This document shows, piece by piece, positions 1,539-12,049 of a stretch of DNA of 15,633 nucleotides. The notes beneath the pieces are model-generated. The model searched no databases, was not told the DNA's origin, and saw nothing but the letters and a program-made list of their open reading frames with translations. The translations under genes were made by a program, and so were the position numbers. How positions within the stretch are numbered: the stretch's first letter is position 1; every line of letters begins with the position of its first letter. The DNA lies in assembly GCA_018304385.1 (NCBI GenBank), contig JAGVWJ010000061.1:1-15633 (forward strand), in the 5' to 3' direction. Source of the stretch: Candidatus Micrarchaeota archaeon (lineage in GTDB: Archaea; Micrarchaeota; Micrarchaeia; Anstonellales; Bilamarchaeaceae).

Positions 1539-2771
1539 ATGAGTTTTCTAAAGCTGATATCTGATAAAAAATTCTGGTCATTCTTTGGTACTGGCCTTAT
1601 TGTTAGCGTAGCTTATATGGATCCTGGCAATTGGGGTACTTCAATAAGCAGCGGTGCTTCATTCAACTATGATCTGCTTTGGGTAATATGGCTTTCGAGC
1701 GGAATGGCAATGCTATTCCAGTATATTTCTGGTAAGATGGGTATTGTAGGCTATTCGCTTGCAGAGATTATAAAAATAAAATGGCAAAATAAATTTTTGG
1801 TATTTGGTTATTGGTTATTGGCAGAGATTGCGATACTCGCTACTGATCTTGCAGAATTTCTTGGTATAGTAGTTGCACTGAATCTTTTGTTCGGGATTCC
1901 AATGCTGCTTGGCGCGTTTATCGCAATTGCAGATGTGCTGCTTCTATTATTTTTAACAAGAAAAACTTTTAGAACGCTTGAGTATGCATTCATATTATTT
2001 GTATCAATAATTGGAATTGGTTATGTTTATGAATTATTAATTACAAAACCAGATTTTGGGCTTATTGCGATACATTCCATAAAACCTATTTTGAGCGCAG
2101 AAACAATCCTTCTTGCGGTTGGGATAATTGGCGCAACAGTAATGCCACACGCATTATTTGTTCATTCCTGGCTAATGAAAAATAAAATGAAAGAAAAAGG
2201 CTTTGGATTAGATAAGAGAATTGCACTCCGCTACCATCTTTTCGATAATGTTTTCTCTCTTATAATAGCAGGTTTGATCAATGCAGCAATTTTAATAATG
2301 GCTGCAGCAGCATTTTATAATTCTGGTTTTGAAGTTGCAACAATTGACCAGGCATATAGAACGCTTACTCCTTTATTCGGCAGTTTAGCAGCAACTATTT
2401 TTGCTATTGCATTGCTTTCAGCTGGAGTTTCATCTTCGATCACTGGTACGCTTGCAGGTCAGAGCATAATGGAAAGCCTTACTGATTTTAAATTAAGCAT
2501 TACTGTCCGCAGGATAATAACTCGTGCTATTAATCTAATTCCTGTACTTATTGCGATTCTATTGAATATTGAACCATTGCAAATATTGGTTTATAGCCAG
2601 GTTGCATTAAGCCTGCTGATACCGCTTCCTCTTATTCCTCTTATATATTATAGTGCAGATAAGAGACTGATGGGTGTTTTTGTCAATAAAAAGGTTACTA
2701 CTGTACTTGCAACAATATTTGCACTAATTATACTAGCTTTTAATGGGTATTTATTATATCAGCTAGTTTGA
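1539..2771 (+). CDS. mntH: NRAMP-family divalent metal (Mn2+/Fe2+) transporter
   Basis: 410 aa, highly hydrophobic, with the NRAMP signatures AYMDPGNW (TM1) and GATVMPHALFVHS (TM6). Confidence 0.95.
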   Translation: MSFLKLISDKKFWSFFGTGLIVSVAYMDPGNWGTSISSGASFNYDLLWVIWLSSGMAMLFQYISGKMGIVGYSLAEIIKIKWQNKFLVFGYWLLAEIAILATDLAEFLGIVVALNLLFGIPMLLGAFIAIADVLLLLFLTRKTFRTLEYAFILFVSIIGIGYVYELLITKPDFGLIAIHSIKPILSAETILLAVGIIGATVMPHALFVHSWLMKNKMKEKGFGLDKRIALRYHLFDNVFSLIIAGLINAAILIMAAAAFYNSGFEVATIDQAYRTLTPLFGSLAATIFAIALLSAGVSSSITGTLAGQSIMESLTDFKLSITVRRIITRAINLIPVLIAILLNIEPLQILVYSQVALSLLIPLPLIPLIYYSADKRLMGVFVNKKVTTVLATIFALIILAFNGYLLYQLV

Positions 2772-6773: not shown

Positions 6774-6869
6774 TAATATCACCCTATTTTAAGTATAACT
6801 TTTTTCTACACAAAACAATTTAAAAACCTACGTTTGCCATAAAAAACCACAATCATTTGGACCGTAACA

Positions 6870-6877
6870 TTTATAAA
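6870..6877 (+). promoter_or_regulatory. Probable TATA box of the 23S rRNA transcription unit
   Basis: TTTATAAA ~25 nt upstream of where the hairpin-rich leader begins (~6900). Confidence 0.55.
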
Positions 6878-6899
6878 TAAGTTCATTCATATTTAAAGT

Positions 6900-7214
6900 T
6901 CACTGATTCTAGTAATGAGAGCGTGCGAGCTCACGTTAAGTGAGCGAAGTTTCTTAGTGCGCAATGAAAATGACTAGCTAGATTCATGCAACGCAGAACA
7001 AGCAATTGTGCGCGTTGCTCTCTTCCGAATAGGAAGAAATCATGCGTGTGAAGTAATGACAAGAAATTCATAGTAATACACTTGAGGATCCTGAAATTCC
7101 GCAAGGAATTTTAGGAGCTAGTGATCGAAAGATCACTGGATAGTCCTCGGTATAAGAAGTGATTCATTTGCATTTAAACAAATGCAAATATTTGTCAACA
7201 ATAGTTGACAAATC
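6900..7214 (+). other. 5' external transcribed leader of pre-23S rRNA, highly structured
   Basis: Local hairpins GCTCAC/GTGAGC, GCAACGC/GCGTTGC, TCTTCC/GGAAGA. Long-range pairing to the 3' trailer: 7042-50/12041-49, 7051-73/12013-34 (one bulged T), 7156-63/12002-09. Confidence 0.75.
7082..7155 (+). mobile_element. 74-nt BHB-bounded intron-like element in the 23S leader, homologous to the intron at 11244-11477
   Basis: Central helix ATAC 7076-79/GTAT 7150-53, 5' bulge ACT, 3' bulge AAG, 7-bp inner helix TGAGGAT/GTCCTCG. Junctions TACAC|TTGA and GTATAA| are identical to those of the 11244-11477 intron, and 46 of 56 aligned positions of the internal module are identical. Confidence 0.65.
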
Positions 7215-9076
7215 ATTAGATATGCTGATTACACGCCATATAGTGGATGGCTTGGCTAGTCTTCGCAAGGTCACGTGGTAAGCTACGAAAAGTCTGGGGT
7301 AGGCGCACGCAGCCTTTGATCCCAGAATCTGACTGTGCACAGCTTGAATAAAGTTGTGCAATAACTTCCTGAAATGAAGCGTCTTAGTAAGGAATGGAAA
7401 AAAAATCAACCGAGATTCGGTAAGTAACAGCGAGTGAAAGCCGAATAGATCAAACCGAATTCTGCTTGGTAACAGGCAGTAGATGTGGTGGGGAATATCC
7501 TTTATCTTAGCTGAAGTTGACTGGAAAGTCATACCATAGCGGGTTATAGTCCCGTAAGCAAAGGAAAGAGGAATGATCCAAAAAGAGTAACATGCCCTAG
7601 ATTGGGCGTGTGAAAATAGGGGTATCAACCTCTAAATCTAAACATGGAAGATTAGACCGATAGCGAACAAGTACCGCGAGGGAACGTTGAAAAGTACCGC
7701 GAGAGCGGTGTGAAAAGTGCCTGAAATTATATGGTTACAGAATGATATAGCATGAAAGGTTAAGCATTTTGGAAGTCTGCTTGGGCAACTTAGCAGGTGA
7801 CAAGGTGTTTCAGTGTTATATCTTTCTTCTCGAAGCAAGAGCCATGGAGTTACTGGGCGTGGCGAGGCGAAAGCCGAAGCGAAAGCAATAGCGCGCAAGC
7901 AATGAGGCGCGACGTCTTAATCGGCGTTAAGTCACTCTCAGCAGACCCGAAGCCATTGTGATCTACACCTGACCAGGGCGAAGCCATTCTGACGAATGGT
8001 GGAGGCCCGCAACCGATGCTAGTATATTCTGCTCGGGTGAGTTGGGTGTAGGGGTGATAGTCCAATCGAACGTGGCGATAGCGGGTTCCCCTCGAAATGT
8101 CCCTCAGGACAGCGTCTTTCGAGGATAATACAACGGTAGAGCACTGATTACTGGGAACGGTTCCGAAAGGGATCGCCTGGTTCTCAAACTCCGAATGTTG
8201 TATTTCTATAGACAAAGGCAGTCGAGTTTCACGGAGTAAGTCTGTGAGCTCTTTCGGGAACGACCGTACGTAAGGTTAAGGACCCTAAATTCTGACTAAG
8301 TGTTAATCGTAAAGGAATCTCCTCTCTGAGACAACCGGGATGTAGGCTTAGAAGCAGCCATCATTTCGAACGGAGCGTGGTTAAACGCGTAATAGCGGAC
8401 CGGTCGAGAGTGCAGGTTCTGAAAATTCACGGGGCTAAGTCAGGTTCCGATACCTTACCCGCGCCAAAAGCGCATGGAGTAGGGGGGCGATCGGATTGCG
8501 TAGAAGTATGGCGGTAACGTCATATGGAGCAGTCTGATACGAATATCATGGTGTTAGTAGCAGCATATCCAGGTGAGAATCCTGGACACCGAATAGAGCA
8601 AGGTTTCCTCAGCAATGTTCGTCAGCTGAGGGTTAGTCGATCCTAAGGTCCGCGGTAACTCCAAGAGGCCGAAAGGGAATCTGGCTAATATTCCAGAACT
8701 ATAGTGGTAGACGTGGTAACACAAGCAGTTTCTCTGACATCTTTGGATATGTGGAGCAGCGCAAGCTGTCTGTAGGCAGTAGGTCCTCGGAGTCTCGTTG
8801 TGAGGAGAAGAGGATGAAAGCCGAAAGAGCAATTCTATTGAGTCCGGGGATCCATGAAAAGGAGAGCTGAGCGATCCATTATAATCGTACCTAGAACTAA
8901 TACAGGTGCTCTAGCTGAAAAGGCTAAGGTGTGGCAGGAGAACTTAAATAAGGGAATTCGGCAAATTAGCCCTGTACCTTCGGTATAAGGGGTGCCTTCG
9001 CTTGCGTAAAGCGGAGGTCGCAGTGACAAGGGAAGAGCGACTGTTTATCAAAAACACAGATCATCGCAGAGGCGAA

Positions 9077-9131
9077 AGCTTTGAATTTAGGGCAAAAAAA
9101 TAAATTCAAAATTTGTCCGCAAAGCAGCCAA
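9077..9131 (+). other. 55-nt ORF-less BHB intron (approx. E. coli 1809/1810)
   Basis: Central GGCG/AGCC (one G-A mismatch), bulges AAA and AAA, inner helix GCTTT/AAAGC. Excision restores the hairpin GGC-GAAA-GCC. Internal stem TTTGAATTTA/TAAATTCAAA. Confidence 0.75.
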
Positions 9132-9336
9132 AGCCTGAGTACGATGGTTGACGCCTGCTCACTACTGGTACCTGAACGTCGGTTTCAACCGGAAAAAGGG
9201 CCAGCAAAGAGCGGGGGTAACTCTGACCCTCTTAAGGTAGCGTAATACCTCGCCGCTTAATTGGCGGCTTGCATGAATGGCGTAACGACTCTTCCACTGT
9301 CCCTATTTAGGACCTGGTGAACTCACTTCCCGGTGA

Positions 9337-9392
9337 ACTTCTTTTTTCAGATTTACATATACAAAGTAGGATACTGAAGACTGAAGACCGAT
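9337..9392 (+). other. 56-nt ORF-less BHB intron (approx. E. coli 2030/2031)
   Basis: Central CGGT 9331-34/ACCG 9387-90, bulges GAA and ATA, inner helix CTTC/GAAG. Excision restores CCGGTGAAGATGCCGG. Confidence 0.88.
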
Positions 9393-9417
9393 AGATGCCG
9401 GGGACTCCCAGAGGGAA

Positions 9418-9461
9418 TTTAGCGTAATTAAATTTTTTTCAATAATTAGTGCTAGCTCTAA
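9418..9461 (+). other. 44-nt ORF-less BHB intron (approx. E. coli 2055/2056)
   Basis: Central AGGG 9412-15/CTCT 9456-59, bulges AAT and AAA, inner stem TTAGCG/TGCTAG plus TAATTA/TAATTA. Excision restores GAGGGAAACGAAGAC. Confidence 0.85.
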
Positions 9462-9644
9462 ACGAAGACTCCATGGAGCTTTACTGTAGTCTGATCTTGT
9501 AATAGCGAGTCCATTACATAGAGTAATTGGGAGAGGTCATGCTGTGTCTTTCGGGGCACGGTTACTCAAAAGTGTAACACCAATTAGTGGATTTGTTATT
9601 GCTTACTCGAAAGAGAACAGGGTCAGGTGGACAGTTTGGCTGGG

Positions 9645-10346
9645 AGCCTTTAGGAATAAGATAAACAAGAGTCCAATAGCTCGTTCTTGGTTTTTCCAAA
9701 GTTTGCAGAAGTTGATTGAACAACAGTGCTTTCAGGAAGGAATCGAATTTTAGATGCGAATTTTCTAATTTCGCTTATTCTATTAATTCGAATTCCTTTT
9801 GAAGTTATTAAACTAAATATATCCAAAGTTTCAAGAAGTTCAAAAAGCTGTTGTCTCAATCCAGGATGAACACATGCAATTTCTAAAACTGCCTTATGGC
9901 TTTTATTAGAATAGATGCATCCATCTGCTGAGAAATATGTTTGAAGGAAGGCAATTGCAAAATCTGAACTATTAAATATTTCAGAAGGAATTTTTGCCTT
10001 TGGATATTTTCCATCTTGGAAGCGAAGTGTTCTGAAAGATGGCGAATATTTAAAGAGGCAATCCGCAATTTTCTTTGAGAAAAATCTCACAGATATTGCG
10101 CCTTTACATTTGTTTATGTGGAAATTTAAATTTCCAAAACATTGGGTAGCCAAGTATTTGAATTTTTCAAGCATTTGTTTGTTTTTATTGGTAAATTGAA
10201 TACAATACGTCCGTTTACTTTTATCATAGTAGACAGAACCATCAGAAAATAAAAAACCAATAAGAGCGGCAAGATTTTTGTCCATAATTTTTATATTATG
10301 GAAAATTATATTTATAGGACTTTTGCTTATTCCTCTAGGCCAGCAA
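9645..10346 (+). mobile_element. 702-nt BHB intron in the P-loop (approx. E. coli 2252/2253) carrying an antisense homing endonuclease gene
   Basis: Central GCTG 9639-42/CAGC 10341-44, bulges GGA and AAG, inner stems GCCT/AGGC and AGGAATAAG/CTTATTCCT. Excision restores GGCTGGGGCGGTAC. Confidence 0.92.
9650..10285 (-). CDS. Double-motif LAGLIDADG homing endonuclease (211 aa), antisense to the rRNA
   Basis: Motifs LAALIGFLFSDGS and IAFLQTYFSADGC. The start is set at ATG 10285 (MDKN...) because the longer listed ORF crosses the intron boundary into exon. TATAAATA on the minus strand at 10316-10309. Confidence 0.9.
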   Translation of the reverse strand: MDKNLAALIGFLFSDGSVYYDKSKRTYCIQFTNKNKQMLEKFKYLATQCFGNLNFHINKCKGAISVRFFSKKIADCLFKYSPSFRTLRFQDGKYPKAKIPSEIFNSSDFAIAFLQTYFSADGCIYSNKSHKAVLEIACVHPGLRQQLFELLETLDIFSLITSKGIRINRISEIRKFASKIRFLPESTVVQSTSANFGKTKNELLDSCLSYS

Positions 10347-10547
10347 GCGGTACGCTCTCGATAAAGAAACAAGAGCGCCCAATGTCGATCTCATTCCGGT
10401 CAGAAATCGGAAGTAGAGGGTGAACAACAAATGATCGACTGACTGTAACCTTAAAAGCGTGGGTTGCAGGGATGAAAGTCGGGTGTAGCGAACCTTGTAG
10501 CCTTTTTGATGAGGGCACAAGCTGTCAGACAAGCTACCCTGGAGGTA

Positions 10548-11216
10548 ATTTACTAGCAATCATTTTTCTATTGCTGGAAATATAGTTTCTCTTATAAATT
10601 TTCTCTACTATTTAATCAACATGAATCCAGATCTTGCCTATTTATTAGGTGCTGCAGGTGATGCATCAGTTATCTATAATAAAAAACGTGCTGAGTATTA
10701 TATAGAATACTGGCAGAAAAATTATAAATGGCTGGAGCAAAGTGTTGCACCGCGAATCAAAAAACTTTTCAATAAAAATGTCAAATCCATTCCAAAAAAG
10801 AATGGGTTATTTCTAATGCGTTTTTATTCGAAAAGTGGTTACGAGTTGTTTAAAAAATATTTAAGCAATTCAACCTTGATTTTAGAAGAAACTAATGAAG
10901 CACAATTAAGTTATGTGCGAGGTTTCTTTGATGCGGAAGGAAGTGCACCTAAAAGAAAGCATGGTACTACCTATAGAATTCATATCTATCAAAAGAATTT
11001 GGAACCTTTGAGAGTAATCTCAAAAATACTTTCAAATAACGGAATTATTGTTGGTAATTTAACAAATAGTAGGGATATTGGCTTATTGCCTATAAGAGGA
11101 AAATCAAATATTGCATATTTTATTCAAAATGTAAAACCAGAGCATCCTGATAAAACAGTTGCTCTTGAAAACTTATGCAAGTAATTATTTTTTCCAGTTT
11201 GCTAGTAAAACCTTAT
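10548..11216 (+). mobile_element. 669-nt BHB intron in the peptidyl-transferase centre (approx. E. coli 2450/2451) carrying a sense homing endonuclease gene
   Basis: Outer helix CCTG/CAGG, central GAGG 10542-45/CCTT 11211-14, bulges TAA and ATA, inner stem TTTACTAGC/GCTAGTAAA(A). Excision restores GGAGGTAACAGGCT. Confidence 0.92.
10621..11184 (+). CDS. LAGLIDADG homing endonuclease (187 aa; two motifs, the first degenerate)
   Basis: DLAYLLGAAGDAS and QLSYVRGFFDAEGS; lies wholly within the intron; TTATAAAT at 10592-99 upstream of the ATG. Confidence 0.9.
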   Translation: MNPDLAYLLGAAGDASVIYNKKRAEYYIEYWQKNYKWLEQSVAPRIKKLFNKNVKSIPKKNGLFLMRFYSKSGYELFKKYLSNSTLILEETNEAQLSYVRGFFDAEGSAPKRKHGTTYRIHIYQKNLEPLRVISKILSNNGIIVGNLTNSRDIGLLPIRGKSNIAYFIQNVKPEHPDKTVALENLCK

Positions 11217-11243
11217 ACAGGCTCGTCGCGGGTGAGAGTACAC

Positions 11244-11477
11244 TTGAAGCTTTTAGGAAAAGCTTCACCAAAACGGTGATGCTAAAAGTTTTGATACAAT
11301 CTAGCGCAAGCTATCCTGAAATGCGCAAGCATTTTGGGAACTGGTGACCGAAAGGTCACTGGAGAGACTCTTACTTATGAGACTTCGGTCTCAATTGAAT
11401 AGAAACAAATTCTTTAAAGTAGGGGATTTAGTTGATCTCATCTGCTCTCATTATTATATTTGAGATCAACAGTATAA
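11244..11477 (+). other. 234-nt ORF-less, highly structured BHB intron in helix 89 (approx. E. coli 2477/2478)
   Basis: Central GTAC 11238-41/GTAT 11472-75, bulges ACT and AAA, 2-bp helices on each side. Excision gives GAGAGTACACATCGACCCC, the canonical length. Confidence 0.85.
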
Positions 11478-11534
11478 ATCGACCCCGCGGTTTGGTACAT
11501 CGCTGTCGGCTTGGGATATCCTGGTCGTGTAGGA

Positions 11535-11613
11535 AACACGAACCATGTATAATTCCCGATGCTGCGTTTTCCAAATAGTAGTGTTGGGAATAAACTCTGG
11601 TTCGCGTCTATAA
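11535..11613 (+). other. 79-nt ORF-less intron with a relaxed BHB in helix 91 (approx. E. coli 2534/2535)
   Basis: Central GTAG 11529-32/CTAT 11608-11, bulges GAA and AAG, inner stem ACACGAACCA/TGGTTCGCGT, internal 13-bp stem 11553-65/11578-90. The exact boundary could shift by 2 nt. Confidence 0.82.
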
Positions 11614-11741
11614 GCGGCCAAGGGTTGGGTTGTTCATCCATTAAAATCCCACATGAGCTGGGTTCAGTACGTCGCGAGACAGTACGGTAGTATCTCCTGG
11701 GAGTGTAGATCCTTGAGAGTAAGAATGCCTGAGTACGAGAG

Positions 11742-11776
11742 ATAGCGTTAGCTAGCGATAGCTATCGTAACTCGAA
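11742..11776 (+). other. 35-nt BHB intron in the sarcin-ricin loop (approx. E. coli 2663/2664)
   Basis: Central CGAG 11736-39/CTCG 11771-74, bulges AGA and AAG, internal TAGCTA-GCGA-TAGCTA hairpin. Excision restores AGTACGAGAGGAAC. Confidence 0.9.
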
Positions 11777-12001
11777 GAACGGGCATTCGGCGCCTCTAGT
11801 ATACCGGTTGTAAAATTGCATAGCCGGGCAGCCACGCGCCACGTCGATAAGATCTGAAAGCATCTAAGATCGAAGCGACTCTTAAAACTAGGGATCAAAG
11901 TCCGCCTATAGTAGATAGGTTTGATAGGATCGAGGTGTAAGCGTTTAGCGTAAGCGAGACGTTCAGCCTGCGATTACTAAAGGAATATTTGTATATCTAA
12001 T

Positions 12002-12049
12002 ATCACTTCAATCTATGATTTCTTGTCATTACTTTCATGCTACACGCAT
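12002..12049 (+). other. 3' trailer strand of the pre-23S processing stem
   Basis: Complementary to leader segments 7156-63, 7051-73 and 7042-50; followed by a T run at 12049-12055. Confidence 0.8.

Follow-up and report, generated by a model that had tools for sequence, protein, structure and literature searches.

The 23S rRNA gene, its introns and its leader

The window analysed here is a complete contig of 15.6 kb (C21; 15,633 nucleotides) from the Candidatus Micrarchaeota genome G000, which comprises 1.53 Mb at 36% G+C and is 89% complete; coordinates refer to the window and the plus strand unless stated otherwise. It carries the 23S rRNA gene (7217-11999; Rfam RF02540, 1930 bits), which is not linked to 16S in this genome and is 4.8 kb long because four BHB introns lie inside it. 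All four show a 4-bp central helix and bulges of 3 nt, and when cut behind the second base of the bulge they yield the correct joins between conserved exon sequences. Intron 1 (9645-10346, 702 nt) has the central helix GCUG:CAGC and intron 2 (10548-11216, about 669 nt) the central helix GAGG:CCUU; neither is present in the 23S gene of the same-genus genome G001. Both contain a LAGLIDADG open reading frame recognised by Pfam. That of intron 2 lies on the sense strand (10621-11184), and that of intron 1 (PF14528) on the strand opposite to the rRNA (9650-10372, minus), where the frame as called starts 26 nt within the downstream exon. To our knowledge, an antisense homing-endonuclease gene within an archaeal BHB intron is unusual.

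The third intron interrupts helix 89 (11244-11477, 234 nt). Its fold gives a GUAC:GUAU central helix of 4 bp between two 3-nt bulges (ACU after GUAC and AAA after GUAU), flanked by an imperfect outer helix h and by a multiloop that replaces h', and its excision restores the conserved helix-89 sequence. Intron 4 (11535-11613, 79 nt) is a canonical hBHBh' intron with the central helix GUAG:CUAU, as established from the sequence and the Rfam alignment. The LAGLIDADG intron 2 and the helix-89 intron are separated by a micro-exon of about 27 nt (11217-11243), so that this part of the peptidyl-transferase region has to accommodate two BHBs in very little sequence.

Other RNA genes of this genome are interrupted as well. 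The 16S rRNA (locus L008, C3:27131-31888, minus strand) carries inserts of 102 nt and 58 nt and, unlike the 23S, has a BHB-like motif between leader and trailer (AGAC:GUCU, A-rich loops of 3 nt). Searches of this 1.5-Mb, 89%-complete assembly with ARAGORN and with the Rfam tRNA model gave only four tRNA genes each. Most of its tRNA genes must therefore carry heavy interruptions, and in examples on contigs C62 and C41 the introns lie in the T-loop or the variable region.

Upstream of the 23S gene we recognised a TATA-like promoter box (CATTTATAAATA, 6868-6879), and the CTTTATAAAT box also stands upstream of the 23S genes of relatives in the family and order. Judging from this box, transcription probably starts near 6900, which would give a leader of about 315 nt and place the element under study inside it. 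When leader and trailer were folded together, the 5' strand of an outer processing stem (7042-7073, 32 nt) paired with trailer positions 12013-12049, and the 5' strand of an inner helix (GAAGUGAU, 7156-7163) formed 8 bp with 12002-12009; between them, the trailer (12002-12049) leaves AAU unpaired at 12010-12012. The 5' strand of the outer stem contains a AUGCGUGUGAAG motif conserved among leaders across the family. Conservation across the family and order (loci L041-L051) also extends to (A)UG(C/A)GUGUGAAG, the motif at the 5' base of the stem (7042-7053). The inner helix is conserved in G001 with changes that preserve pairing (AGAAGUGAG with CUUACUUCU, also paired in the co-fold).

No leader-trailer BHB could be drawn for the 23S from this co-fold, in which the trailer provides a 3-nt bulge only, with no partner bulge. 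A BHB hairpin is found within the leader itself (7076-7156). Its central helix joins 7076-7079 to 7150-7153 (AUAC:GUAU), its bulges are 7080-7082 (ACU) and 7154-7156 (AAG), and an h' stem of 6-7 bp pairs 7083-7088 with 7144-7149. Taken alone, the hairpin is a canonical BHB, with two 3-nt bulges on opposite strands and a 4-bp helix between them, but it has no local outer h: on that side lies a three-way junction with the trailer, from which the hairpin projects as a side arm between the outer stem and the inner helix of the co-fold. Cleavage by the rule of the introns is predicted to excise a piece of 74 nt (7082-7155) and to give the spliced-leader join UAAUACAC/GAAGUGAU, where slashes here and below mark cleavage points.

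A dispersed family of covarying hairpin modules

The first-pass annotation of the window had noted that this leader element resembles the helix-89 intron, and the sequence is as it described. The leader reads AAUACAC/UUGAGGA..UCCUCGGUAUAA/GAAG around 7082-7155 and the intron GAGAGUACAC/UUGAAGC..CAGUAUAA/AUCGACC around 11244-11477, so that the 5' junction TACAC/TTGA and the 3' junction GTATAA/ are common to both. Each element is indeed bounded by junctions that fit a BHB, AUAC:GUAU in the leader and GUAC:GUAU in the intron, with the cleavage rule of the other three 23S introns. The two also share a two-hairpin module with GCAA and GAAA loops: 7087-7143, in the apical loop of the leader hairpin, aligns with 11312-11366 in the intron, and both fold alike, the leader element as a closing stem plus two hairpins and the matching part of the intron as the same two hairpins. 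Compared with shuffled sequence, the folds have z-scores of -6.0 (leader copy) and -5.4 (intron copy). All 19 aligned pairs stay paired despite the differences U-A/G-C, U-A/C-G, U-A/U-G and A-U/G-U and one extra pair in the leader, as the annotation had argued; its further detail of a C-G to G-C exchange varies with the placement of the one-pair indel. Chance cannot account for so close a similarity. Misassembly of the two copies is unlikely, because they differ at 10 of 56 positions and have unique flanks.

BLAST of the genome revealed further copies of the module on other contigs. A covariance model built from four copies (R1) found 23 copies in G000 and a model built from 21 copies (R2) found 32, and we put the total at about 30 copies of a unit of some 55 bases. 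The leader copy scored 76.8 bits with R1 and 64.5 bits with R2, and the intron copy 76.6 and 60.5 bits. In an alignment of 21 copies, 97.8% of cells were paired and compensatory changes affected 17 of the 19 pairs; none of 500 shuffles reached the pairing or covariation values of the module, and no slid register came near either. With all copies aligned, the covariation is overwhelming and bears out the proposed common origin of the two modules under selection on structure. The consensus runs from GAU through a first hairpin of variable sequence and length to AG, and then from CUAG through a GNA or GNRA loop to CUGG and a final A.

Most copies are intergenic or lie in 5' UTRs, and many stand at contig ends or in tandem. 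We found R2 matches in 16 of 24 genomes of the same family, at 0-36 copies each, and within the genus the numbers extend from one copy in G001 to 36 in G002; outside the family there were two single matches only, one of them marginal. The module-rich genomes are G000, G002, G005, G009, G015, G017 and G021, and the module-free ones G006, G007, G013, G014, G016, G018, G020 and G023. Rfam 15 contains no family matching the leader (E<=10) or the 23 copy-bearing loci, the only nearby match being an SRP RNA fragment, and no description of the repeat emerged from our literature searches, whose scope was not confined to this question.

Several further features were observed around individual copies. 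Two tandem copies in locus L014 (C12:66023-68209; 1380-1553 and 1777-1862, minus strand) lie just downstream of the SRP RNA fragment match, on the same strand. The flanks of three copies contain a GACGTGG/CCACGTC stem, in which the slash separates the two strands. Tandem GAGAG-UUUUGUCCGAAAGGACAAACAG units mark out the lower-scoring matches as a sub-family (L024 1570-1660 on contig C65; also L028, L025 and L027). About 500 nt downstream of a module copy, a free-standing open reading frame of 345 aa (L001 586-1623, minus strand; contig C16) encodes a LAGLIDADG domain together with a winged-helix DNA-binding domain.

No inverted termini could be discerned in the module, and the flanks of three filled sites display no consistent target-site duplication, with boundaries blurred by divergence. 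No candidate transposase emerged from the two types that we tested, Y1 and TnpB. Mobilisation by RAYT/Y1 was rejected when PF01797 was not found in the 89%-complete G000, and mobilisation by IS200/IS605 when searches for the TnpB domain PF07282 were negative in the module-rich genomes G000, G002, G005 and G009 and positive in the module-free G013 and G014. We also set aside a viral origin, as viral contigs contained no exact copy of a conserved 25-mer from the module core. After inspection by eye, hammerhead-like, C/D-box and K-turn readings were dropped, their required motifs being absent or inside covarying helices.

The strong covariation, together with G-U pairs that make the fold strand-specific, suggests that the copies could function as RNA. 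The module might even be mainly a functional RNA domain, for example a protein-binding or stabilising one, that is kept in leaders, 5' UTRs and introns and whose spread is secondary; its conserved unpaired bases (GAU, AG and CUAG..CUGG), the GNRA-like loop and the transcript-sense orientation of the three best-resolved copies agree with such a role. Against it stand the variation among close relatives from 0 to 36 copies, with 1 versus 36 inside one genus, and the placement of the copies. About ten of the 32 matches, or about a third, overlap open reading frames, as called by a crude stop-to-stop caller some of whose frames may not be genes, and copies between tandem genes are sense in six cases and antisense in three, a bias that is not significant.

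Empty orthologous sites and the likeness of the two junctions

Three sites that are filled in G000 are empty at the orthologous position in relatives, and two of these keep their BHB junctions without the module. The leader of G001, which we compared by direct reading, has the same architecture: a UGAGGA-AUUAG-UCCUCG hairpin is followed by GUAUAAA and the conserved AGAAGUGAG, and the 5-nt loop AUUAG occupies the place where G000 carries the module. The helix-89 intron of G001 lies at the same position, ends in CGUAUAA/AUCGACC and shares its backbone hairpins with that of G000, in which the module appears as a clean 50-nt insertion (AUCCUG..CACUGG). Model R2 had no match in the entire 23S locus of G001, nor did it detect the module in the 5' regions of 23S genes from 15 other relatives. 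The two 23S sequences are 81% identical over most of the gene, and the exact insertion boundaries are uncertain by 1-2 nt. At the third site, the G000 copy lies between the promoter of a lipoprotein gene and its ribosome-binding site. By low gap-extension alignment and direct reading, promoter, ribosome-binding site and start region are the same in the orthologue of G002, which lacks about 110 nt that include the module.

In G001 both BHB structures occur and the module is missing from each, so the histories of junctions and module are separate. For the intron copy, a loss in G001 in place of a gain in G000 could in principle have occurred, and it is by its presence and absence that the module appears to be mobile. 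The empty sites add to the evidence against a module maintained mainly for an RNA function, and we consider that reading improbable.

Comparison with G001 also showed that the helix-89 intron is a composite of a backbone common to both genomes and two dispersed cassettes. The second cassette, GAAGCUUUUAGGAAAAGCUUCACCAAAAC (11246-11274), is a hairpin with a covarying stem of 9 bp and has seven copies in the genome: the one in the window and those at C26:7929, C58:206 (minus), C20:41777 (minus), C50:2637, C62:26612 (minus) and C41:14039. A further locus is L061 3478-3508. Copies of this cassette occupy the 5' end of introns in rRNA and tRNA; one precedes the start codon for ribosomal protein P1 by about 25 nt, and part of one falls within a 16S intron; in G001 the cassette is located in a different 23S intron. 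The two copies within tRNA introns face opposite ways with respect to the tRNA, the C62 copy being antisense, which indicates insertion at the DNA level and not reverse splicing.

These observations bear on how the two junctions in the window came to be alike. To explain the likeness, the first-pass annotation had proposed a single BHB element without an ORF, which would spread as RNA, for instance by reverse splicing, and enter after TACAC by means of the central helix formed by its own 3' GUAU. With near-identical junctions, 4-bp central helices and 3-nt bulges, the two window copies fit this proposal, but the thirty other copies have no such junctions: among all 32, only the window copies have TACAC upstream and GTATAA downstream. 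Copies recovered with the covariance model from the genome and its relatives are mostly outside rRNA and introns, and relatives, too, carry the module without BHB junctions. Nor are BHB flanks enriched around the module. A loose scan with 200-nt flanks was uninformative, as it succeeded at 100% of random sites, and in the tight version that we used, 3 of 32 module copies had BHB flanks compared with 17% of random sites, two of those three being continuous stems. Taken with the junctions that exist in G001 without the module, the make-up of the intron, which exceeds the leader element by 160 nt and combines separate cassettes, and the occurrence of the second cassette in both orientations within tRNA introns, these results make spread of a single BHB element at the RNA level very improbable.

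The annotation had alternatively suggested that a leader processing signal was captured as an intron. Copying of the leader hairpin into helix 89, or in the reverse direction, would account for the UAC:GUA central helix and the GUAUAA end that leader and intron have in common in G000 and G001. In G001, however, these are all that the two elements share once the module is put aside, AA bulges are usual in most of the rRNA BHBs here, and GUAC is conserved rRNA sequence. We found no support for such copying, and it can be given almost no weight.

Much of the resemblance probably has a simple source in constraint. GUAC belongs to the conserved rRNA sequence of helix 89, so the intron must end with its complement, and of five rRNA BHBs examined in G000, four have an AA bulge. 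The remainder is made of unlike parts, for UUGA in the intron is the start of the second cassette, and UGA in the leader is the first part of the ancestral inner h' stem. Here G001 reads AUACUC-UGAGGA where G000 has AUACACUUGAGGA, so only G000 has the 9-nt identity at the 5' junction, and the parts that compose it are not homologous. The 9-mer at this junction occurs 16 times in the genome, mostly in apparently coding regions, and TACACTTGA..GTATAA has three extra genome-wide matches, which are apparently coding and in no BHB-like fold. Although an identity of 9 nt is unlikely a priori, which speaks against coincidence, we infer that the likeness of the junctions reflects constraint plus coincidence.

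Origin of the repeat, the leader hairpin and known systems

We regard it as probable that the module is a small structured repeat of REP/MITE-like character that spreads at the DNA level through this genome and family, and that two of its copies landed independently in RNA that is dispensable to the cell. One copy would have entered the apical loop of a pre-existing 23S leader hairpin and the other the multiloop of a pre-existing helix-89 BHB intron, both insertions presumably being tolerated because the host segments leave the mature rRNA. Such an origin removes the attractive idea of a self-guiding BHB intron. It also suggests how look-alikes can arise: if small hairpin repeats gather in RNA that is spliced or trimmed, unrelated introns and leaders will seem homologous.

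The leader BHB hairpin raises a testable question of its own about the maturation of unlinked 23S rRNA in these archaea. It is transcribed 4.8 kb ahead of the trailer and could therefore be cut while emerging. G000 contains, on C28, an open frame of 416 aa with the endonuclease domain PF01974, and judged by length this would fit a three-unit, broad-specificity enzyme; a splicing endonuclease of that kind is known from Micrarchaeum (PMC3488258). Two features of G001 count against cleavage of the leader, namely that its hairpin has a non-canonical 2-nt 5' bulge, if a U-G pair forms, and that in its co-fold the trailer, in place of the local GUAU, is the partner of ACAUAC. Co-transcriptional cutting of the leader hairpin by the splicing endonuclease has, in our judgement, somewhat less than an even chance. 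A more ambitious proposal, which we think rather unlikely, would hold that the 23S precursor of this genus has no leader-trailer BHB and that a true 'leader intron', the side hairpin, is cut co-transcriptionally by a broad-specificity endonuclease to release a small module-bearing circle, the repeat family being a new class of archaeal structured mobile element. If true, this would amount to a variant route of archaeal 23S maturation.

Among known systems, the repeat is closest in kind to the REP/BIME/REPIN, BOX, ERIC and Correia elements, small structured repeats of bacteria (reviewed in PMC3184786), for which an association with RAYT has been described (PMC2817692). Like them it is short, gene-less, hairpin-forming and multi-copy, mostly placed in intergenic or UTR sequence, sometimes in tandem, and variable in copy number between close relatives. 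Unlike them it is archaeal and consists of two unlike hairpins, the first with a variable stem and the second conserved with a GNRA-like loop; it shows no discernible inverted termini, RAYT/Y1 was not found with it and TnpB does not track its copy number. It has, in addition, settled inside an rRNA leader and an rRNA intron.

Related ORF-less sequences in several spliced RNAs of one archaeal genome also have a counterpart in the Thermoproteales. Fujishima et al. reportedly described in 2010 that ORF-less BHB tRNA introns were transposed in these organisms. Such transposition is summarised in a review (PMC4090602). The repeated unit in the Thermoproteales is the intron with its BHB, whereas here it is an internal module, most copies of which lie outside introns and lack a BHB.

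For the leader hairpin, the nearest parallel is the 5' UTR of HVO_1309 in Haloferax volcanii, where a BHB intron is cleaved and circularised (Schwarz et al. 2020, PMC7714728). Both are local BHBs in a non-coding leader, neither in a tRNA nor within an rRNA; cleavage has been demonstrated in Haloferax, whereas the 23S leader hairpin is known from sequence and folds. Finally, a canonical leader-trailer BHB is described for archaeal pre-rRNA processing stems (PMC7038931, PMC10351888). The locus conforms to this pattern in that a long leader-trailer stem flanks the 23S, and the 16S of the same genome has its leader-trailer BHB-like motif, but the 23S BHB departs from it, being formed by the leader without the trailer, in a side hairpin that branches from a three-way junction.
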